From contig JBAZFC010000001.1 in NCBI GenBank assembly GCA_041653635.1, positions 433,723-497,722 of the forward strand: a stretch of 64,000 nucleotides of DNA, read 5' to 3'. A program made the translations under genes and the position numbers. How positions within the stretch are numbered: position 1 is the stretch's first letter; each line of letters begins with the position of its first letter. The DNA comes from Candidatus Micrarchaeia archaeon (GTDB taxonomy: Archaea; Micrarchaeota; Micrarchaeia; Anstonellales; Bilamarchaeaceae). Positions 35,167 through 44,383 of the stretch are shown here, piece after piece. The notes under the pieces were generated by a model. The model was not told the DNA's origin. It worked only from the letters and a program-made list of their open reading frames with translations, and ran no database searches.

Positions 35167-35724
35167 CTAGTACGGCCTCTTGAGCTGCGGCTTCACGAAC
35201 AGGTAATATCTTTCCTTGCCCTCCATCTCCGAGATTATCCTGTGCACGAAAATGGCCGCCGGGTCCCCCAAAGTGGAAACCCTCGCCTTGAGATCCGCGA
35301 AGTTCTCAAACGGCTTCTTGTCCCTCTCCTTGAGTATGAGCTCCATGTTCTTTTTTCCTATTCCCGGAATCAAATCCAGCTGGTGCACCCTCATGGAGAT
35401 GGGCCCGGCCTTGTTTATGAAATTCACGAACACCGCCTCGCGGGATTCCACTATCTTCCTCACCACATTCGGCACTATGTCCTTCGCCCCGGTGGTCAGT
35501 TCGGTATACTCTATCCTCCCCTTTATCCTGTCCACTTCCGTGCGGTCGCCCTTCCCCACGAATATCTTGGCGCCCACGGTGATGTTCGCGTCCGGCTTCG
35601 CCGTCGCCTCAAGCAGGGTGAAGAACTGGTCCCCCACGAGCTGGACGATAGGCTCCTGCCTGAGCCCGACCGCCCTTCCCCGGGAGAGGTATTCAACAAC
35701 CCATGCGTAATCTTCCATAGCCAT
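35167..35724 (-). CDS. DUF655/COG1491 HhH nucleic-acid-binding protein
   Basis: 185 aa. HhH motif LIPGIGKK. Sits in the conserved L21e-RpoF-DUF655 operon position. Confidence 0.65.
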   Translation of the reverse strand: MAMEDYAWVVEYLSRGRAVGLRQEPIVQLVGDQFFTLLEATAKPDANITVGAKIFVGKGDRTEVDRIKGRIEYTELTTGAKDIVPNVVRKIVESREAVFVNFINKAGPISMRVHQLDLIPGIGKKNMELILKERDKKPFENFADLKARVSTLGDPAAIFVHRIISEMEGKERYYLFVKPQLKRPY

Positions 35725-36047
35725 TACCCAAGTGCCCTAAGCACGTCCTTCATTTCCTCTTCGCTTATGTCTATCTTGTTCTTCAGCAGCACCGCCTTGA
35801 GCGCCGCCTCGCTGCCAGGCATGATATCAACAATCTTGACCGCCGTCTCCTCGTCAATCTTCGGGCTCGCCGCCTTCACCTTCTTCAGCATGCCCTCCGA
35901 CTTCTTCCTGTCCGTCTTCGCGAAGAGTGTCGCATGCTCCAGCGCGTTCGCCTGTTCGTACCCCAGCTCCTCACCCGCGTCCTTCCTTGCCTGCAGCACT
36001 TCCAGCACGTCCGCCATCGGCACGGGCCTGGAATTGGTTATCTTCAT
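35724..36047 (-). CDS. rpoF: DNA-directed RNA polymerase subunit Rpo4/F
   Basis: 107 aa. Position between rpl21e and DUF655, as in many archaea. Confidence 0.7.
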   Translation of the reverse strand: MKITNSRPVPMADVLEVLQARKDAGEELGYEQANALEHATLFAKTDRKKSEGMLKKVKAASPKIDEETAVKIVDIMPGSEAALKAVLLKNKIDISEEEMKDVLRALG

Positions 36048-36319
36048 TGCATCCCCCTCAGGTGCACAGGTGAGGCGATGAGCCTCTTCCTGGCGTTCAT
36101 GTCCCTTATCTCAACCACGTACGCCTTGCCCCTCTTCTCAACTATGGTCCCATGCCTTCCGTCATAACGCGGAGCAGGGAAGCCCGAGAAGCAGGGCTGC
36201 AGGGATATGACTACCCTGTCCCCTTTCTTGAAGGTCTTAACACGGTCCCCGACCGTGAGCTTCTTGCTCTTCTTGAACCTCTTGGTCCTCCTGACCATTA
36301 TTCCCTTTGAGTTCTTCAA
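36044..36319 (-). CDS. rpl21e: 50S ribosomal protein L21e
   Basis: 91 aa. L21e pattern (VGDRV...GRHGTIVEKRGKAYVVEI...PVHLR). Confidence 0.85.
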   Translation of the reverse strand: MKNSKGIMVRRTKRFKKSKKLTVGDRVKTFKKGDRVVISLQPCFSGFPAPRYDGRHGTIVEKRGKAYVVEIRDMNARKRLIASPVHLRGMQ

Positions 36320-36453
36320 TTTTCACACCCTGTTTCCATTATTTCCGATTTCGGATTTTTAAATCTGCCACTGTTGGGTATGCAGAATCCGTGCTAATTT
36401 ATTTCTGCACCCCTTTATAAATGTTGCTGCCGGATATTTAAATAGGTGATTCT

Positions 36454-37029
36454 TTGTCTCCGAAGCTTAAGGGGATTGACTATACAATTACCAACATCGT
36501 GGCATCTTCCAACCTCGGCCTCGAGCTGGACCTTTTCCTCATAGCGACCAAAATCCCGCAGGTTGAGTACGAGCCCGAGCAGTTCCCGGGCGCCATCCTG
36601 AAGTTCGACGACCCGAAGGCCACCATTCTCCTGTTCAAGAACGGGAAGATAGTCTGCGTCGGGTGCAAGAGCGAGGCGAAGATAGCGGAGACCATCGCAA
36701 AGACGGTGAAGCTCCTCACGCCCTACGCCAAGAAGATAATAAAGAAGACCAAGAGGCCCGAGTTTGAGATAACGAACATCGTCGCATCCGCGAACCTGGG
36801 CATGGGCCTGGACCTATACACTATTGCTTCCGAAGTTGAGAACGTGGAATACGAACCGGAACAATTTCCGGGCGCAATCCTCAAGTTCCGCGAGCCGAAG
36901 GCCTCGTTGCTGCTTTTCAAGAACGGGAAGGTCATCTGCGCGGGCTCCAAGGACGAGAAGAGCATAGAGGCGGCCCTCATGAAGGCGAAGAAAATCCTCA
37001 AGCCCTTCTCCACGGTGAATCCACGGTGA
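36454..37029 (+). CDS. tbp: TATA-box binding protein
   Basis: 191 aa. Two direct TBP repeats (NIVASSNLGLELDL / NIVASANLGMGLDL). Apparent TTG start. TATA TTTATAAAT about 36 nt upstream. Confidence 0.9.
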   Translation: MSPKLKGIDYTITNIVASSNLGLELDLFLIATKIPQVEYEPEQFPGAILKFDDPKATILLFKNGKIVCVGCKSEAKIAETIAKTVKLLTPYAKKIIKKTKRPEFEITNIVASANLGMGLDLYTIASEVENVEYEPEQFPGAILKFREPKASLLLFKNGKVICAGSKDEKSIEAALMKAKKILKPFSTVNPR

Positions 37030-37337
37030 AAGGGACAATGCCCACACAGAAGCAGGTAATGGGCAAGCTCAAGGAAGTGCTGGACCCCGAGATAGGCGTA
37101 AACATAGTGGATTTAGGGCTAATTTACGAAGTCAAGGTGGAAAAAGCACAGGTCAATATCAAAATGACCTTCACCACCCCCGCATGCCCCCTCCTCGGCT
37201 ACATAGTGAACAACGTCCAGTCAAAAGTCCGCGAACTCAAAGGCATCTCGGACGTGCAGGTACAATTCGTATGGGAGCCGCGCTGGACGCCTGAGCGGAT
37301 GAGCTCCGCCGCCAAAAAACAATTGGGATTGCAATGA
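37026..37337 (+). CDS. DUF59/MIP18-family Fe-S assembly protein (SufT-like)
   Basis: 103 aa. DUF59 signature (IVDLGLIY...ACPL). Confidence 0.7.
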   Translation: MKGTMPTQKQVMGKLKEVLDPEIGVNIVDLGLIYEVKVEKAQVNIKMTFTTPACPLLGYIVNNVQSKVRELKGISDVQVQFVWEPRWTPERMSSAAKKQLGLQ

Positions 37338-37642
37338 TGGTCGTCCTCACAACCCTGCCCTCGTATGCGCATGCCGAGCGGCTCGCCTCCTCCATAGTTG
37401 ATTCCCGCCTCGCCGCCTGCGCAAGCATCCTGCGCATAGAGCACTCCTATTACAGGTGGAAGGGCCGCACCGTCCGCGCCCCGGAAATCCTCCTCATCAT
37501 CAAAACCCGCAAATCCCTCTATGCCAAGGCAGAAGCGTTCATAAAGAAAAACCATCCCCACAAGTGCCCGGAGATAATCGCGCTCTCGCCTTCCAAGGTG
37601 AGCAAGGACTACAAAAAGTGGCTCTATTCAGAAACCGGATGA
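37334..37642 (+). CDS. cutA: Divalent-cation tolerance protein CutA
   Basis: 102 aa, CutA1 fold length. Confidence 0.8.
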   Translation: MMVVLTTLPSYAHAERLASSIVDSRLAACASILRIEHSYYRWKGRTVRAPEILLIIKTRKSLYAKAEAFIKKNHPHKCPEIIALSPSKVSKDYKKWLYSETG

Positions 37643-37683
37643 ATCCAGCTGGCTCTCCGGAATCAGCAGCGCAAATGGCGCAG

Positions 37684-37959
37684 CTATTCCCCCATTTTGC
37701 TCCAGATGAAAGCGAAAAGCCAGCCCACAACAGCGCCCATGATGAACGCGCCAACGATGCCCACGATAAAAGTGAGCACGTCAAACGGGAGCGCAGTCAG
37801 CGTCACCCCTGTGACGAAGTGGACCGAGTGCCACCATCCCATTATGCCGCCACCAGTCGCCGTTACCAGCACAACCCAAACAATGTGCAGCACGGCGAAC
37901 AGCAGCCCCAGCGAGATGGCCGCCCGCTTTCCGCTTATCTCCATCGCCATGCAGAGCAC
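37684..37959 (-). CDS. Small membrane protein
   Basis: 91 aa with three hydrophobic helices. Confidence 0.4.
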   Translation of the reverse strand: MLCMAMEISGKRAAISLGLLFAVLHIVWVVLVTATGGGIMGWWHSVHFVTGVTLTALPFDVLTFIVGIVGAFIMGAVVGWLFAFIWSKMGE

Positions 37960-37987
37960 TCAAAAAGAAGGAATTTATGCCTTCCGC

Positions 37988-38572
37988 TCAGGAGAAAACC
38001 AATTCCAGCACTCCATTCTTATACTTCTTTTCCATCTTCTTCCCGCCCACATCCTCGGGCAGCTCCACCTTCCTGTAATATTTGCGCGCCCCTTCCGCCT
38101 TTATTTCCAATTCCTTCCCGCTGACGCTGAGCTGCACGTCCTTCTCGCCAACTCCCGGCATCTCCGCAATGACGTTTATGCCTTTCTTGTCCTTGAAAAC
38201 ATCAACCAGGGGCTCCCTTCCCTCGCCTTCATGTTCCTGCTCCCGGCTTCCAGCTTCCGAAATCTTCTCCCGCCCTTCCCCTTCTCCTGTTTCCCTCTCC
38301 AGCACCCTCATCTCCTGCTCCTTCCTCTTTATGTCCCCGAACTCCGTAACTACGGGTTTTCCGTCCTGCCCTACCCTTATGGAGAACCCATAAACCTGCG
38401 GCCCCCTCATCTGGGAGAGGCGCCTCACCTCGTTTTGGGGCATGCCCTTCATCATCCGCTCCATCATCTCCTCCATCTCCTCGCGCATCCGCTCGAACTC
38501 GCCGCCGAACCCGAACTCGTCCTCGTCAAGTCCGAAGAACCCGAAGGGCCTTCTCTTCCTGCCGGTCGCCAT
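37988..38572 (-). CDS. Small heat shock protein (Hsp20) with E/G/M-rich N-terminal extension
   Basis: 194 aa. C-terminal alpha-crystallin domain (VDVFKDKKGINVIAEMPG...GVLELVF). Confidence 0.8.
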   Translation of the reverse strand: MATGRKRRPFGFFGLDEDEFGFGGEFERMREEMEEMMERMMKGMPQNEVRRLSQMRGPQVYGFSIRVGQDGKPVVTEFGDIKRKEQEMRVLERETGEGEGREKISEAGSREQEHEGEGREPLVDVFKDKKGINVIAEMPGVGEKDVQLSVSGKELEIKAEGARKYYRKVELPEDVGGKKMEKKYKNGVLELVFS

Positions 38573-38643
38573 AACAATCCCACCATACAGTCGTCCCCAT
38601 AGCTATTTAACTTTTCTCTTGCCATCCCTCCAATGGTGAGCAA

Positions 38644-38859
38644 GTGGAGGAGAAGAAAAGTTTCGACCTTCCGAAGCCGGTAAAGGAGGGCGACATATTA
38701 GACGTGACGATTGAATCAGTGGGCGGCAAAGGCGACGGCATGGCCAAGAAGGACGGTTTCGTCATTTTCGTGCCGAACGCCCAGAAGGGAGACGCAATCA
38801 AGGTAAAGATAGTCTCGCTCAAGCGCACCTTCGGCATAGGCGAAAGGGTGGAGGAATAG
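38644..38859 (+). CDS. TRAM-domain protein
   Basis: 71 aa, stand-alone TRAM fold (GDILDVTIESVGGKGDGMAK...). Confidence 0.7.
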   Translation: MEEKKSFDLPKPVKEGDILDVTIESVGGKGDGMAKKDGFVIFVPNAQKGDAIKVKIVSLKRTFGIGERVEE

Positions 38860-39294
38860 ATGTTCATACCCGACCCGTACGAAAAATTGAAGAAGCTCCG
38901 CAAGAAGATGTACTGGGACTTCCCGGACATTTTCGGCAGGGAGTTTGACTTCTACACCGCGGAGGCGAGGATTCCGCTCGCCGACCTGCGCAAGGAAAAG
39001 AACGACCTCGTCCTCGTAGTGGAAATGCCCGGCCTGCACAAGGAGGACATAAAGGTGGACTTGCACGAGGGCAGAGTCCGCATCTCAGGCGGCAGCAAGG
39101 CGGGCAAGGAAGAAAAAGGAAAGGGCTTCTACCACAAGGAACGCCTCATCTCCGCATTCTCACGCGAATTGGCGCTCCCCGAGGAGGTTGACCCCTCCTC
39201 CGCAAAGGCCAAATATGAGGACGGAGTGCTGGAAATCCGGATGAGGATAAAATCCGGCCAGAAAAAGAAGGGCAGGCAGTTAGTGATACGCTAA
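38860..39294 (+). CDS. Small heat shock protein (Hsp20)
   Basis: 144 aa alpha-crystallin domain. Start immediately follows the TRAM ORF stop. Confidence 0.8.
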   Translation: MFIPDPYEKLKKLRKKMYWDFPDIFGREFDFYTAEARIPLADLRKEKNDLVLVVEMPGLHKEDIKVDLHEGRVRISGGSKAGKEEKGKGFYHKERLISAFSRELALPEEVDPSSAKAKYEDGVLEIRMRIKSGQKKKGRQLVIR

Positions 39295-39379
39295 AGTGGT
39301 GCAAATAACGTTCGCAAAAGTTTCCTTTCTCCCAAAACCTAGCCATTTAAATACTCTTTTTGCGACTTATACTACCATT

Positions 39380-40744
39380 ATGCCTTCAAATAATTCTCCA
39401 GAAAAATCCAGGCAGCTTTCGCTTCTCGATGAAAGCGGCCCAAAGGGCCTCAGGAGTACTCCGCCCCCGCTCACTGCAAGGTACGGCTCCACAAACCGCG
39501 TCCCCAGGGAGTTCTTCTTCCCCGAAGGCGACGTGACGCTTGAGCGCATAGTGGGCGCCATGCAGTCCTGGAAGAACAACGGCATAGACGGTTTCAAAAG
39601 GGCGTACGCTTTCCATAGGAAGCTGCTGGCCGCGGAAGGGAAGCCCCGCCTGAGGGAGGACGGCACGCTGTATGAGCAGCACCCCGCCAGGGTGGCCCTG
39701 CGCATGGCGATTGTAGGCGGCGGCTCCGACATAGTCACGCCCGCTTATCTTCACGACATCACGGAGGATTTTGACGTGCCGCCGGAAAGGCTCGGGGAGT
39801 TCGGCCACATAGTCACCCCCAGGGTATCGCTCCTCACGAAGGGCAGGTGGAACCCGGACGTTTCCCCGGACTGGATATATCCTGAAAACCCGGCTTTTTA
39901 TACGATGGAGGACCTGTACGAGCCCACGATGTACGCCATGCGCGCAAGGAGCTACAACGACCGGCTCCTGGATGCCGGCGACATCTCCGTGGTCCTGATA
40001 AAGGCGGCGGACCACCTTGACAACCTCATGCACTGGGACAAGGCGAAGCAGCAGAGGAACGTTGAGACCATGCTGAACAACGTCCTTGCCATCCTCATGC
40101 GCATGCTGGCGTGGGAGGACGTGCAGGCGCTCGTGAAGTTCATACGTGAAAACGTCAAGCTGGAGGTGCCCGAGGGCATGCTCGTGCAGTCAAAGTCGTG
40201 GGTTGAGAGGCACGAGCCGAGGGACATCATACTCAGGAAGGGGCTGAAGGGCATGCTCACCGGGCTGCAGATTCCGCGCTCCGGGCAGGCGAACATATAC
40301 GGCGCAAGCGCGAAGTACGCCCTGCCCCTTGGCTGGTGCGAGGTCGGGCTCCCCAACGACCGCAAGGACTACCTGAAGCTTCTTACAGATGCGTTCTCCC
40401 CGGACTATTCGGTAATCCCGGTGGAGAGCAAGCTGCCCCCGGGCATGCCTGCCAGCGAACAGATGTTCCGCGTCTTCATACCCCGGGACGAGGCAGCCAT
40501 CGCGCCATACGGCTTCGCGTTTGATGAAAGGACCGCGCGGCTTACATTGAGCATGGGGGAGAAGAGGTTCAGGTTAATGCTGCACACCCTTGACCGGGAA
40601 TTCATCATAGAAGACCCTGCCCTGGACGGTCCAATCCATGATATCGAGGCACGTTGCCACGACATCGTTTCAAGGGTAAGGGATTTCCACACCAAGTACA
40701 TCCTCCCGGGCCTTGAGGCGAACTCCAGCATACCCCCGCAGTGA
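39380..40744 (+). CDS. RelA/SpoT-type HD-domain protein (putative (p)ppGpp hydrolase-like) with long unknown C-terminal domain
   Basis: 454 aa from ATG 39380 (TATA TTTAAATA at -27). Motifs AFHRK...YEQHPARVA, AYLHDITEDF, LIKAADHLDNLMH match the RelA/SpoT hydrolase HD fold. Confidence 0.7.
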   Translation: MPSNNSPEKSRQLSLLDESGPKGLRSTPPPLTARYGSTNRVPREFFFPEGDVTLERIVGAMQSWKNNGIDGFKRAYAFHRKLLAAEGKPRLREDGTLYEQHPARVALRMAIVGGGSDIVTPAYLHDITEDFDVPPERLGEFGHIVTPRVSLLTKGRWNPDVSPDWIYPENPAFYTMEDLYEPTMYAMRARSYNDRLLDAGDISVVLIKAADHLDNLMHWDKAKQQRNVETMLNNVLAILMRMLAWEDVQALVKFIRENVKLEVPEGMLVQSKSWVERHEPRDIILRKGLKGMLTGLQIPRSGQANIYGASAKYALPLGWCEVGLPNDRKDYLKLLTDAFSPDYSVIPVESKLPPGMPASEQMFRVFIPRDEAAIAPYGFAFDERTARLTLSMGEKRFRLMLHTLDREFIIEDPALDGPIHDIEARCHDIVSRVRDFHTKYILPGLEANSSIPPQ

Positions 40745-40750
40745 TGTTTT

Positions 40751-41344
40751 ATGCAGCTTTTCGGCCTTTCCCTCACAATCCCAAAAGATGTCTATGAGCC
40801 CGCGGAGGACTCAGAGATGCTCGCCTTCCATTCCCACAATCTGAAGGGAAAAATCCTTGAGATTGGAACAGGCTCCGGCCTCGCTTCAATCCTTAATGCA
40901 AAAACCAACCCTTCAAATGAAGTGCTCGCCACGGACATAAACCCCGCCGCGATAGAATGCGCAAAAAAGAACGCGGAGGCAAACGGCGCCAAGAACATCC
41001 ATTTCCTCCAATCCAACCTTTTTGAAAAAGTGGAAGGGAAATTTGATTCTATCCTATTCAATCCGCCCTACCTCCCCACCTCCAAAGATGAAAGGGTCCC
41101 CGGCAACCTCAACTACGCATTTGACGGCGGAGAGGATGGAAGGAAAACATTGGACATCTTCCTGGAGGAATTTGACAAATTCCTCGCTCCGAAAGGAGTC
41201 CTTCTCCTAGTCCAGAGCTCCCTCAATTCCACAGAAAAGACGCTCGCAACCCTGCAGGGAAAGGGCTTCGCAACAAGAATCCTTGAGGAGCGCCCCTTCT
41301 TCTTTGAGATTATCTATCTAATAGAAGCCCAAAGAACAGTATAA
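40751..41344 (+). CDS. HemK/Mtq2-family N5-glutamine methyltransferase
   Basis: 197 aa. SAM-binding EIGTGSG and NPPY motif. Confidence 0.7.
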   Translation: MQLFGLSLTIPKDVYEPAEDSEMLAFHSHNLKGKILEIGTGSGLASILNAKTNPSNEVLATDINPAAIECAKKNAEANGAKNIHFLQSNLFEKVEGKFDSILFNPPYLPTSKDERVPGNLNYAFDGGEDGRKTLDIFLEEFDKFLAPKGVLLLVQSSLNSTEKTLATLQGKGFATRILEERPFFFEIIYLIEAQRTV

Positions 41345-41351
41345 GCGCAAT

Positions 41352-42581
41352 CTAGAGAATAATATACGCGTTCCCCTTCTTCGTAATCGTCAAAGCAGTT
41401 TCCCCGGAGAACCCGAACGTCTTCGCATATCCCTTCTCTATCTTTATGCGCATCCCGTCCCTCACGAGCGCCCCGCGGTTGTCAAATATGTATATCACTC
41501 CCTCGCTCCCCTCTTCGTCCGCCACCACGAGCCTTGTCAGGTTTTCCTTCACCCTCTTGCTCTTCTGGTACTCCTTCTGCTCCACGCTCTTCACGAGCAG
41601 CGGAACCGTGGTCACGTTCCTCATGCCGCTTTTAAGCTCCGTGAGATGGGTAATATTCATCTGCTTGTGCCTGTCCTTCGCAACCCTGAACGCCAGCTTT
41701 ATCTCCTCCTCCGCGTTCCTCACCATGTTCTGCATCGCCTTTTTCATGACGTCCTCGTCACCTTCCGAGGCGAGCATCGTATCATAAGCAAGCCTGAACA
41801 GGCTCCCCTTCTCCTCCCTCTCCTCGCGCACCTCCTGCGCCTCAACCGCTTCGGGCGTCTCCAGCTCGCTGGAAATCTCGTCCATCTCCCTTCCGGCCCT
41901 GCCCATGTCCAGCTCCTTAGTCCCCACGCTCTGGAGCCCGAGCTTCCCATCCGTTGAATCTTCCGAGGGCTCTTCGGTTTCCGGCTCCCTTCCCTCTTTC
42001 CCGTTGTTCTCCTTCTTCTCCGGAATCCCCGGCTTCTGCCCCTTCGCCTCGCCCTCGTCGCTTATCACGTGCGTCTCTGCACCTGAAATGACATCCAAAT
42101 AATCAGTAAGCATCTCCTGCACGGCCCTGCCCTTCTGCTCGTTAACCTGGCCGTTCTTGCCGAACGCCTTCATGTAAATCTTTTCCAGGGTGGGGAGCAT
42201 CCTGCCTTTCATCGCGGCGGCCTTCTCCTTGCCCAGCTTCCTCTCCATCAGCTGCTGCAGGGGCCTCATCATCTTCTCGCGCGCCGTTTCCGCCTTCCTC
42301 TCCTCCTCCACGCTCTTCTTCTCCTCGGGCTTCTCGTCCGCGCCGTTCTTGAACACTTCCGCGAACGACATGAGCTCCGGCTGCGCCACCCTCTTTCCAT
42401 CCAGCAGCGTCCTCGCGAGCGTGCTCACGCTCGCATCCTTGTCGTAGGTAAGCTCCAATAGCGCGAAGTTCGCCGCAGGGTCCTCATACCTTGCAAGCTC
42501 TGCCGCGGCCTGCTTCCTGACCTGCGGGTTCGCGTCAAAAGTGAGCGACACTAGCTCATTGAGAGTCGGTTTGCGCGTCAT
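41352..42581 (-). CDS. HEAT-like repeat / low-complexity E,K-rich hypothetical protein
   Basis: 410 aa from internal ATG 42581. N-terminal HEAT/PBS-lyase-like repeats. Confidence 0.5.
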   Translation of the reverse strand: MTRKPTLNELVSLTFDANPQVRKQAAAELARYEDPAANFALLELTYDKDASVSTLARTLLDGKRVAQPELMSFAEVFKNGADEKPEEKKSVEEERKAETAREKMMRPLQQLMERKLGKEKAAAMKGRMLPTLEKIYMKAFGKNGQVNEQKGRAVQEMLTDYLDVISGAETHVISDEGEAKGQKPGIPEKKENNGKEGREPETEEPSEDSTDGKLGLQSVGTKELDMGRAGREMDEISSELETPEAVEAQEVREEREEKGSLFRLAYDTMLASEGDEDVMKKAMQNMVRNAEEEIKLAFRVAKDRHKQMNITHLTELKSGMRNVTTVPLLVKSVEQKEYQKSKRVKENLTRLVVADEEGSEGVIYIFDNRGALVRDGMRIKIEKGYAKTFGFSGETALTITKKGNAYIIL

Positions 42582-43368
42582 CCTTAACACCCAGCTCCTC
42601 CAGGGCCAAACGGAACACGTTGAGGAGCGCATGCCCCTCGTCCTTGGTCGGATTCGCCCTCGCGAGAACCCTCGCGAACGCAACCTTGCACCTTCCCGGG
42701 TTGCGAAGCCTATATCTCGCCGCCATCTTATTAAACATATGCGTGAGTGCGCGCCTCTCCGAAGGCGAAAGCCGCTCTTCCCCCCAAGAGGAAGGGGGGG
42801 CACCCCCCTTCTCTCTAGGGTACTCATAACCCCCCATTTTTGTCCTTGCAAACCCAGCTTTAGCCATCCCACTATCAATGGAATACAGAACCACCGCAAC
42901 CGCATGGCTAAGGTTCAGCACCGGATAGCCCGCGTGCGTTTCCGCATGCACCAGCAGGTCGCACGCGCTTATCTCCTTTTCATTGAGCCCTATCCCCTCC
43001 CTGCCGAAAACCAGCGCTATCCTCTGCCCGCCGCGCTCCCCCAGTCCGGCGCAGAACTTTTTCAGGGGCACCGCCGCCCGTATCGTCCCCTTGTTCCTCT
43101 TCAGGATGCCCGTCGTCCCCACCACGAGGCCGCAATCCCCCACCGCCTCCCGCAGCGTCCCGTACCTCTTCGCCTTTTTCAGGAGCCCCACCGCATGCTT
43201 TGAGAACTTGACAGCGTCGGCCCCCAGCCCGCATTTCGGGCCCGCTATCCTCAAATCAGAAAAGCCGAAATTCTTCATAACGCGCGCGGCCATGCCGACA
43301 TTAACATCGTATTCCGGCCCTACAAGGACCACGCAGAACGTGGGCGCGGCCCCTTTTTTCCCGCCCAT
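42556..43368 (-). CDS. SpoU/TrmH-family RNA 2'-O-methyltransferase with C-terminal extension
   Basis: 270 aa from ATG 43368. SPOUT knot motifs (LVFGREGIGL, AVAVVLY). C-terminal extension contains the in-frame repeat copy E. Confidence 0.75.
   Translation of the reverse strand: MGGKKGAAPTFCVVLVGPEYDVNVGMAARVMKNFGFSDLRIAGPKCGLGADAVKFSKHAVGLLKKAKRYGTLREAVGDCGLVVGTTGILKRNKGTIRAAVPLKKFCAGLGERGGQRIALVFGREGIGLNEKEISACDLLVHAETHAGYPVLNLSHAVAVVLYSIDSGMAKAGFARTKMGGYEYPREKGGAPPSSWGEERLSPSERRALTHMFNKMAARYRLRNPGRCKVAFARVLARANPTKDEGHALLNVFRLALEELGVKDDAQTDSQ
42779..42870 (+). repeat. Dispersed hairpin repeat, copy E (inside the SpoU CDS, in-frame)
   Basis: CCAAGAGGAAGGGGGGGCACCCCCCTTCTCTCTAGGGTACTCATAACCCCCCATTTTTG... 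homologous to copies A-D. Confidence 0.7.
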
Positions 43369-43432
43369 GTGCGTTTTATAAATCCTTCTCCTTAAATATT
43401 TTCCACTTATACTTATTTGGTGCAGTGGTACG

Positions 43433-43963
43433 ATGGAACTCGATGAACTTGAAGCACAGATAAAAACGCTTGAGGACAAGAAGTCCGGCCTCATAGAGGA
43501 GATTAAGAAGAACTACGGCCGGATACGCTACAAGAAGTACGAGGAGAAGGCCCTCGACCCGTACCTGAAGGAAACAGAGCACGTGATGGTCGGCCCGGTC
43601 AGGAAAAAGCTCCGACAGCTGGAGTTCCGCATATCCACCCAGGCTTACACCCCGCAGATAGAGCGCCAGATGATAAAGGACGTGCGCAAGGCGGAGGAGG
43701 AGCTGAAGGGCCTGAGGCAGGTAGAGCGCGCACGCAGGAAGAAGAAGCTCGTGCAGCAGGACATCATAGACGCGGAGAACCGCATTAAAGAAATAGAGGA
43801 GGAGCTCAAGAAGATACGCGAGACGCTCAAGGAGCTCTACGGGAAGGCGCGCACCTCAAAGTCGGCGAACAAGCAGGGCGTCACCTTCGGGGAGAAGCAC
43901 GACCACCTCGTCTCCATGGGGGATGTAGTGATTATAGAAGAGGAAGGGAAGGACAAGAAATAA
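43433..43963 (+). CDS. Coiled-coil protein (hypothetical)
   Basis: 176 aa, heptad-rich K/E sequence. Confidence 0.5.
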   Translation: MELDELEAQIKTLEDKKSGLIEEIKKNYGRIRYKKYEEKALDPYLKETEHVMVGPVRKKLRQLEFRISTQAYTPQIERQMIKDVRKAEEELKGLRQVERARRKKKLVQQDIIDAENRIKEIEEELKKIRETLKELYGKARTSKSANKQGVTFGEKHDHLVSMGDVVIIEEEGKDKK

Positions 43964-44383
43964 TTACCTGATTAGTTTTTTCCCTTCTTCAATTATCTTT
44001 TCGTGGTCAAATCCAAGCTCAGGCAATTCCTTTAGCGGAAACCACTTCGCCTCCTTCGCATCATCCCCGCCTTTCAGTTCCCCGCCCACCGCCTCGCACA
44101 GATAAGCCGCAGCCACGGTCCCCCGCGGGTCCCTGTCCGGGCCTGAGAATACCCCGATAAGTTTTTTCACGCGCACGCTCAGCCCCGTTTCCTCAAGCGC
44201 CTCGCGGGCGCAGCACTGTTCCGCCGTCTCATCCGCCTCGGCGAACCCTCCGGGAAGCGCCCACTTCCCCTTAAACGGCTCATTCTTCCTCCTAATCAAT
44301 ACTATTCTCCCGTCCCGCACTATCATGGCATCTGTTACGAAAGGCCTCATGAGATGTGTTGAAATTAGTGTATTTATAAGCAT
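43964..44383 (-). CDS. NUDIX hydrolase
   Basis: 139 aa. Nudix box GGFAEADETAEQCCAREALEETG. Confidence 0.8.
   Translation of the reverse strand: MLINTLISTHLMRPFVTDAMIVRDGRIVLIRRKNEPFKGKWALPGGFAEADETAEQCCAREALEETGLSVRVKKLIGVFSGPDRDPRGTVAAAYLCEAVGGELKGGDDAKEAKWFPLKELPELGFDHEKIIEEGKKLIR

Follow-up and report, generated by a model that had tools for sequence, protein, structure and literature searches.

RelA/SpoT-homologue (RSH) enzymes form the core of bacterial stringent control, and the use of alarmones by archaea is unsettled. Two groups of these enzymes are the nearest described relatives of the protein considered here: the long RSHs of bacteria, in which a hydrolase domain is combined with synthetase, TGS, helical, zinc-finger and ACT/RRM domains, and the small alarmone hydrolases (SAHs), which consist of a single domain of about 150-205 residues. 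The hydrolase domain carries six motifs, namely an Arg (HD1), a His (HD2), a His-Asp pair (HD3), a Glu-Asp pair (HD4), an Asp together with an Arg or Lys (HD5) and an Asn (HD6) (Bisiak et al. 2022, PMC9293644). RSH hydrolases are sporadic in archaea, with occurrences in Natronomonas, Methanococcoides and Methanosarcina, and SAHs are a class with this sporadic archaeal distribution (Atkinson et al. 2011, PMC3153485). RelA/SpoT genes have furthermore been reported in 19-69% of the genomes of four DPANN phyla, Diapherotrites, Woesearchaeota, Pacearchaeota and Nanoarchaeota (Li et al. 2021, PMC8407392). We describe here a gene at positions 39380-40744 of a 64,000-nucleotide stretch of DNA (hereafter the window) from a Candidatus Micrarchaeia archaeon, a tiny symbiont of the Micrarchaeota; its 454-residue product joins an RSH-type hydrolase domain to an orphan C-terminal domain.

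A preliminary description of this gene had presented stringent-response enzymes as generally absent from archaea. This is broadly true, (p)ppGpp having gone undetected in Haloferax and Sulfolobus (PMC10249747), but it passes over the RSHs recorded in several archaea (PMC3153485) and in the four DPANN phyla (PMC8407392). Since RSH genes had already been reported in archaea, including other DPANN phyla, an archaeal RSH is unsurprising in itself. The window protein is not one of the archaeal cases in the list of Atkinson et al. It resembles the DPANN genes of Li et al. in belonging to the RSH family, in having a DPANN host and in its inferred bacterial origin. It is set apart from them by description, since Micrarchaeota are not listed in that study and the genes reported there are annotation-level assignments with no special architecture, whereas the fusion of an HD domain with the orphan domain was seen in Micrarchaeota alone.

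Taken by itself, the window protein provided marginal evidence for its assignment. It matched Pfam HD_4 (PF13328) with 29.2 bits against a gathering cutoff of 27.2 (E 8.8e-7) and TIGR00691 with 29.8 bits across the N-terminal 110 positions of the model, and a phmmer search of the PDB with this sequence alone retrieved Thermus thermophilus Rel at E 5.8e-4. We therefore collected the family and built a profile (A6) from nine N-terminal regions. In the PDB this profile matched 22 distinct sequences, every one of them an RSH hydrolase domain, with E values of 3.2e-23 for Mycobacterium tuberculosis Rel, 1.9e-22 for T. thermophilus Rel, 7e-20 for Bacillus subtilis Rel, 5e-18 for Acinetobacter baumannii SpoT, 1.5e-17 for RelH, 5e-15 for MESH1 and 5e-7 to 2e-5 for PaSAH and Aph1. 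A Pfam scan of the nine members found HD_4 in eight (best E 1.5e-17) and the generic HD family in three, and no other families. On these comparisons the HD domain is of the RSH (HD_4) hydrolase type, in agreement with the RelA/SpoT-type assignment of the preliminary description, and no other HD subfamily came up.

The catalytic residues were assessed in an alignment of 20 family members, in which the mean pairwise identity of the HD region is 0.37. R92, H101, H125, D126, E129, K154, K208, D211 and N215 are invariant in all 20. The profile alignment placed the catalytic residues in register with those of Rel, R92 falling opposite the Arg of the M. tuberculosis Rel stretch LRQSGDPY, and the spacings (9 residues from the Arg to the His and 24 from the His to the His-Asp pair) are the same as in Rel and RelH. 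The alignment of the catalytic His, Asp, Glu and Asn, on which the earlier assignment depended, is thus borne out. Because these residues are invariant among sequences sharing merely about 37% mean identity, the enzyme looks active, and the HD domain is probably a Mn-dependent 3'-(pyro)phosphohydrolase.

Two features distinguish this active site within the RSH family. The residue after the HD5 Asp, an Arg or Lys in the motif as defined (ADRLHN in Rel), is a His in the window protein and in one other member (P0002), an Asn in 16 members and a Ser in one; among the 20 members, the Arg is kept solely in the outlying P0030. In addition, the family has an aromatic-rich insertion about 17 residues longer than the corresponding part of Rel (profile positions 156-196 against Rel residues 110-133), in which W165 is invariant and R188 nearly so. 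As the HD5 Arg/Lys is lost family-wide and the aromatic insertion lies beside the active site, the substrate pocket may differ from that of canonical RSHs, and the substrate may be other than canonical ppGpp.

Comparison with described structures placed the protein nearest to the long RSHs. M. tuberculosis Rel (5XNX), T. thermophilus Rel (6S2T) and A. baumannii SpoT (7QPR) are the top profile matches (E 3e-23 to 3e-17), and HD domains of long RSHs are the closest relatives outside the family in a search of 5.8e9 proteins. Each half of the domain is covered by the alignment, which takes in the helices that follow KxxDxxxN, and HD1 to HD4, HD6 and the Asp of HD5 are identical. Unlike the long RSHs, however, the window protein contains none of the synthetase (PF04607), TGS, helical, zinc-finger and ACT/RRM domains, and in their place stands an unrelated domain of about 190 residues; Pfam found no TGS or ACT match, there was no structural match to these domains either, and the protein ends at residue 454. 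It also differs by the insertion, which follows the 'LTK' motif, by the replacement of the HD5 Arg with His or Asn, by a basic extension of about 60 residues and by its archaeal host. With the SAHs (MESH1, 3NR1/5VXA; RelH, 7QOC/7QOE; PaSAH, 6YVC; Aph1, 7SMG) it shares a hydrolase domain without a synthetase domain, as well as the common catalytic motifs and, judging from its conserved residues, the Mn-dependent chemistry of that group (PMC9293644). Yet SAHs are single-domain proteins, whereas the window protein has 454 residues and two extra conserved regions, and the profile scored at most 59 bits with most SAHs as against 86 with long Rel.

The RSH-homologous stretch runs from about residue 63 to residues 250-262, as delimited by the family profile against the PDB. 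The preliminary description had located the diagnostic motifs within the N-terminal 170 residues. All three exist (YEQ-H101-PARVA, L-H125-D126-IT-E129-D130 and K208-AAD211-HLD-N215), but the final one lies at residues 208-215. Likewise, the C-terminal domain, thought to comprise about 300 residues, actually comprises about 190 (263-454), the domain sizes having been misjudged by about 100 residues; the C-terminal sequence quoted at that time, GWCEVGLPNDRKDYLK, was found at residues 318-333. Absent from that description was a basic, conserved N-terminal extension of about 60 residues ahead of the HD domain. Its isoelectric point (pI) is 8-12 in most members, its predicted local distance difference test (pLDDT) score in the full-length model is below 50, and it contains the conserved motifs (K/R)xxQ[LIM]x[LI][FLP] and PLTxR...RVPxEFFxP. 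Variants of the former include QLSLL, QIPLF and QLELF. We take its Q[LIM]x[LI][FLP] part to resemble the bacterial beta-clamp-binding pentapeptide QL[SD]LF, and it does not seem to fit the archaeal PIP box.

In the C-terminal domain, a conserved core (residues 278-366) is followed by a variable beta stretch and, at the end, by a long helix. An AlphaFold2 (AF2) model of residues 240-454, computed from 10 sequences, reached a pLDDT of 77.5 and a predicted template modelling score of 0.76, the five models lying within 1.3 pLDDT units of one another. Across the 20 members the conservation of the core equals that of the HD domain (0.37 mean pairwise identity in either); R281, P299, P325, P353 and E360 occur in all of them, and Y307, E321, G323 and S350 in 19 of the 20. 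No family could be assigned to it, as the preliminary description had already stated. Pfam returned nothing at E<=1 for the C-domains of 10 and then 13 members, and NCBIfam left the domain unmatched. PDB profile searches with the same 10 and then 13 sequences gave nothing beyond noise (cubilin, and p18INK4c, an ankyrin-repeat protein, at E>=0.027). Foldseek searches with the model gave no match among 350,542 PDB chains (best E 0.075) or in BFVD (best E 0.043), the template modelling scores being <=0.22. The predicted beta-alpha-beta-beta-alpha-beta order of residues 319-382 recalls the ferredoxin/ACT/RRM topology, a likeness unsupported by the structural matches.

Because the C-domain occupies the position of the synthetase in long RSHs, we compared it directly with SYNTH, using hhalign and three aligned SYNTH domains. 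The idea that it might be a degenerate (p)ppGpp synthetase, prompted by its position, its size and loose motif similarities such as that of FRLMLHTLDREF to EIQIRTxxMHxxAE, was rejected: hhalign gave a probability of 0.1-0.3%, PF04607 did not appear at E<=1, no Rel or small alarmone synthetase structure was among the best Foldseek matches listed, and inspection of the family alignment revealed none of the SYNTH signature motifs in the C-domain. Its fixed fusion to the HD domain, its equal conservation and its invariant polar residues suggest instead that it is most likely a lineage-specific module with a regulatory, ligand-binding or partner-binding role. With about 190 residues, a confident model and clear invariant residues, it is tractable for structural and ligand work.

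The first search of the 5.8e9 proteins yielded four family members, and later searches enlarged the family. When 1.84e9 (1.84 billion) representative proteins were searched exhaustively for the C-domain by hmmsearch, eight were recovered, and each full-length match among them also has the HD domain in front. The N-terminal extension of about 60 residues and the 190-residue C-domain are found together in every full-length member. All named members come from Micrarchaeota or Micrarchaeia, one being labelled 'Candidatus ainarchaeum sp.', a name not in the taxonomy used, and the seven loci found among GTDB species representatives with a closer alignment (A7) all belong to metagenome-assembled genomes (MAGs) of Micrarchaeota. 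In the search of the 5.8e9 proteins with the HD profile, the family scored at least 139 bits and was separated by a gap from the next matches, at 110 bits or less, which were bacterial HD+SYNTH(+TGS) proteins. The family appears to have been inherited vertically within Micrarchaeota. As the HD domain is closest, beyond the family itself, to the long bifunctional RSHs of bacteria, the simplest reading of these sequence relationships is an old acquisition from Bacteria, after which the synthetase and regulatory regions would have been lost or replaced. A literature search found no paper on this Micrarchaeota family, and the lineage-restricted fusion is a new architecture within a known enzyme family.

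One protein stands aside from this pattern. P0007, of 144 residues and encoded on a 1.3-kb ENA contig, joins a cold-shock-domain-like N-terminus (GTVKFFNRVKSFGFI) to the latter half of the orphan C-domain, the junction lying at a 'DDGKDY' stretch common to both. This fragment is probably a chimera produced by assembly; a genuine P0007 would be the one example of the C-domain occurring apart from the HD domain.

The open reading frame is a real gene. Translation from the ATG at 39380 to the stop codon ending at 40744 (+) gives the 454-residue product, which is 100% identical to a protein (P0001) annotated as 'hypothetical protein' in a Candidatus Micrarchaeia archaeon MAG. This ATG is the true start, because the aligned orthologues share its opening M-[PAS]-S-N and because a conserved promoter lies inside the longer reading frame that opens with a GTG at 39296. 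That GTG was accordingly rejected as a start.

The promoter block AACCTAGCCATTTAAATACTCTTTTTGCGAC occurs once in the 64-kb window. In seven orthologous loci (L001 and L005-L010) it retains 72-81% identity over 54 nucleotides, whereas the nucleotide identity of the coding sequence is merely 53-55% in three of the seven. This conservation, far above that of the coding sequence, shows that purifying selection acts on a promoter belonging to the gene itself, and it suggests a candidate binding site for a regulator or a strongly constrained core promoter. The TATA-like octamer TTTAAATA within the block supports the TATA promoter proposed for the gene in the preliminary description. The leaderless transcript also proposed there follows from the usual archaeal spacing between TATA box and transcription start site, which predicts a start a few nucleotides 5' of the ATG and hence a leaderless or near-leaderless mRNA. 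As an Rfam scan of positions 37000-42000 gave no family match, the conserved block corresponds to no known RNA. A sigma-70 promoter and terminator scan, which uses a bacterial model inapplicable to an archaeon, merely recovered the TATA region. The octamer is found four times in the window, as against 0.97 expected, and is present on both strands at 36435-36444, in the divergent intergenic region between the L21e and TBP genes; it is consistent with a TATA consensus of the host organism.

From these data we propose a mechanism. The HD domain would bind one Mn2+ through H101, H125, D126 and D211; E129 and D130 would activate a water molecule that strips a (p)ppGpp-like nucleotide of its 3'-(pyro)phosphate, while R92, K154 and N215 would hold the base and the phosphates, all these roles being assigned from the conserved residues. 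The alpha/beta C-domain, which sits at the synthetase position of the long bacterial RSHs without being a synthetase, would gate the hydrolase. Such a protein would have arisen by an old acquisition from Bacteria, with the synthetase and TGS lost or replaced and vertical inheritance within Micrarchaeota thereafter. The likeliest function, which we favour with modest confidence, is that of a Mn-dependent nucleotide 3'-(pyro)phosphohydrolase that is active and under the control of a new regulatory domain. The housekeeping, non-mobile context of the gene, with its own conserved promoter and no PADLOC match, was counted in support of this function. Several observations weigh against it. D130 is an Asp in 16 of the 20 members, a Glu in three and an Asn in one, and His or Asn stands in place of the Arg or Lys of HD5. 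For the C-domain neither a ligand nor a partner nor a fold analogue emerged, so that its regulatory role is a putative one. The full-length AF2 model, made with the first four homologues, had a pLDDT of 43.6 and was unusable, so that only the C-domain model was used. A tblastn search for a (p)ppGpp synthetase in the 64-kb window with a long RSH matched the HD domain alone, and to this is added that (p)ppGpp has gone undetected in the archaea studied to date (PMC10249747).

We considered several other explanations. Should the HD domain belong to a different subfamily, such as the dNTP triphosphohydrolases, the HD domain of CCA-adding enzymes, HD-GYP or the 5'-nucleotidases, its likeness to RSHs would be superficial. 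The weakness of the single-sequence matches (HD_4 two bits above its cutoff, phmmer E 5.8e-4 in the PDB) would allow for this, but the profile matched RSH hydrolases exclusively in the PDB, Pfam reported only HD_4 and the generic HD family, and the RSH-specific ED pair and KxxDxxxN are in register; on this evidence the idea is effectively refuted. More plausible, if doubtful, is an orphan hydrolase comparable to MESH1, with the same chemistry and fold and another physiology: no (p)ppGpp would be made, and the real substrate would be some other abundant nucleotide with a 2'- or 3'-phosphate, such as NADPH, or a 3'-pyrophosphorylated RNA or tRNA end. MESH1, which the family profile matches, is an RSH hydrolase of organisms without a synthetase and acts as an NADPH phosphatase (PMC9166373). 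The lack of a synthetase in the window, the undetected (p)ppGpp of model archaea (PMC10249747) and a pocket that the HD5 change and the aromatic insertion may have altered are all compatible with such a role. On the other hand, the HD1 Arg and the HD6 Asn, which have been described as coordinating guanine (PMC9293644), are invariant, the HD domain scores higher with long Rel than with MESH1, and the synthetase check covered the 64-kb window alone, a small alarmone synthetase elsewhere being possible.

A bifunctional enzyme, in which the C-domain would be a second catalytic domain (a highly diverged or non-homologous alarmone synthetase, or a kinase) and the whole protein a minimal make-and-break Rel, is suggested by the position and similar size (about 190 residues) of the C-domain relative to SYNTH, by its alpha/beta nature, its invariant Arg and Glu residues and the Glu, Ser and Tyr positions that hardly vary, and by the bifunctionality of the long RSHs that are the closest HD relatives. 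It is nonetheless quite improbable in view of the hhalign comparison with SYNTH, the missing signature motifs, the lack of Pfam RelA_SpoT at E<=1 and the absence of Rel, RelQ, RelP and nucleotidyltransferases from the best Foldseek matches listed. Hydrolase-dead HD domains exist in RelA-type long RSHs. The window protein could similarly be a pseudo-enzyme or sensor, its HD domain binding a nucleotide without hydrolysing it and serving as a receptor or scaffold. The family-wide absence of the HD5 Arg/Lys and the imperfect conservation of D130 point that way, and retained but inactive HD domains in RSHs have been discussed (PMC3153485). This is, however, decidedly improbable, since none of the four metal ligands, E129 and N215 varies among the 20 diverged sequences, a pattern typical of active rather than decayed enzymes. 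Finally, SAH antitoxins of toxSAS modules are known, as described in two preprints (bioRxiv 10.1101/575399 and 10.1101/2021.04.30.441581), and the protein might serve as an antitoxin or defence SAH that neutralises a toxic synthetase (toxSAS) or a phage-triggered alarmone. We find this hardly credible: no synthetase, toxin or defence gene is adjacent in the loci examined, PADLOC gave no match for the hydrolase gene, and the gene sits in conserved housekeeping blocks (TBP, L21e, MTQ2, SecY, ArgRS), not in variable islands.

The coordinates of the gene, its parts and its neighbours are collected in the table.

Table. Features of the hydrolase locus; positions are those of the window.
Feature	Position	Strand	Remarks
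Whole gene	39380-40744	+	Uninterrupted open reading frame, stop included; 454-residue RSH-type HD hydrolase with orphan C-terminal domain
N-terminal extension, residues 1-62	39380-39565	+	Basic, predicted disordered; from alignments, pI and pLDDT <50
RSH hydrolase domain, Pfam HD_4, residues ~63-262	39566-40165	+	Single-sequence and family-profile matches
Orphan C-terminal alpha/beta domain, residues 263-454	40166-40741	+	AF2 model; conservation in 20 members
HD1 (R92) and HD2 (H101), within LREDGTLYEQHP	39653-39682	+	Invariant in 20/20; align to LRQSGDPYITHP of M. tuberculosis Rel
HD3 (H125-D126, predicted metal ligands) and HD4 (E129-D130, predicted nucleophile-activating pair)	39752-39769	+	Aligns to Rel LLHDTVED
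HD5 (K208...D211) and HD6 (N215), within IKAADHLDN	40001-40024	+	All three invariant
Aromatic-rich family-specific insertion, residues 155-198 (GRWNPDVSPDWIYPENPAFYTMEDLY...R)	39842-39973	+	Between 'LTK' motif and HD5 helix
Conserved promoter block AACCTAGCCATTTAAATACTCTTTTTGCGAC	39336-39366	+	Read from sequence; holds TATA-like box
TATA-like box TTTAAATA	39346-39353	+	27-34 nucleotides 5' of ATG
Hsp20	37988-38572	-	Upstream context
TRAM	38644-38859	+	Upstream context
Hsp20	38860-39294	+	Upstream context
HemK2/MTQ2-family protein (release-factor glutamine) methyltransferase	40751-41344	+	7 nucleotides past stop; MTS domain

The window is archaeal, with about 55% G+C, and TBP, L21e and Rpb4 are among the genes around the locus. 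Many long open reading frames antisense to real genes (35242-36081, 37456-38602 and others) are artefacts of the G+C-rich sequence; examples are one of 279 residues opposite Rpb4/L21e and one of 301 residues opposite Hsp20.

The two small heat-shock protein (sHSP) genes and the TRAM gene reported beside the hydrolase gene were found, but the stress-related locus that the preliminary description read from them is weakly founded. In the close clade, made up of members with at least 39% protein identity, the order Hsp20(-)/TRAM/Hsp20/hydrolase/MTQ2 is kept, and gene order is fully collinear around it, from YdjM to NUDIX. The adjacency of sHSP and TRAM genes is confined to this collinear clade and is gone around two distant members, one (P0008) being flanked by an AAA_17/18 kinase and by SecY where the ribosomal-protein operon ends and the other (P0010) adjoining the arginyl-tRNA synthetase (ArgRS) gene. 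Because synteny is lost in the distant members, we downgraded the stress-operon reading, and the sHSP association is most simply explained by shared ancestry. The gene immediately downstream was recognised as MTQ2 by NF011529 (216.6 bits, above cutoff) and by TIGR00537 hemK_rel_arch (185 bits). It is possibly co-transcribed with the hydrolase gene. The pair stays together in the close clade alone, and we treat the methyltransferase as a context gene, adjacency implying no functional tie.

Further downstream, the open reading frame at 41352-42905 (-), listed with 517 residues, overlaps that of a SpoU methylase (42556-43494). Since its orthologues have only 407-415 residues, its true start is probably internal. 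Its product is a conserved acidic protein of the same collinear block, and the orthologues match no Pfam family apart from a weak HEAT-repeat match. A NadM-type Nudix (ADP-ribose pyrophosphatase-like) gene follows at 43964-44383 (-), 3.2 kb downstream of the hydrolase gene. We take the ppGpp hydrolase of T. thermophilus that is not homologous to RSHs to be a Nudix enzyme. The Nudix gene of the window is a possible candidate for an alternative ppGpp hydrolase; the T. thermophilus hydrolase was identified as described by Atkinson et al. (2011, PMC3153485). At one orthologous locus (L005, 10658-11645), a HEPN and nucleotidyltransferase pair, resembling an MNT-like toxin-antitoxin system, stands beside the Nudix gene; the window is without this pair.

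The family offers a concrete test case for the use of alarmones by archaea, being conserved, equipped with its own promoter and with intact catalytic residues, and apparently inherited vertically instead of carried on a mobile island. Hydrolysis of (p)ppGpp by the enzyme would mean that Micrarchaeota encounter this nucleotide; otherwise the enzyme joins MESH1 as an RSH scaffold re-used for another nucleotide. A bolder and unlikely proposal is that Micrarchaeota run a genuine alarmone-type circuit, based on (p)ppGpp or a related 3'-pyrophosphorylated nucleotide that the symbiont, its host or bacteria nearby would make. The hydrolase would be its off-switch, and the C-domain would be a new fold that senses a symbiosis or stress cue or docks onto a partner such as the ribosome, taking over the function of the TGS/ACT regulatory apparatus of bacterial Rel. 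Were this true, stringent-like control would reach an archaeal phylum through a new regulatory module.

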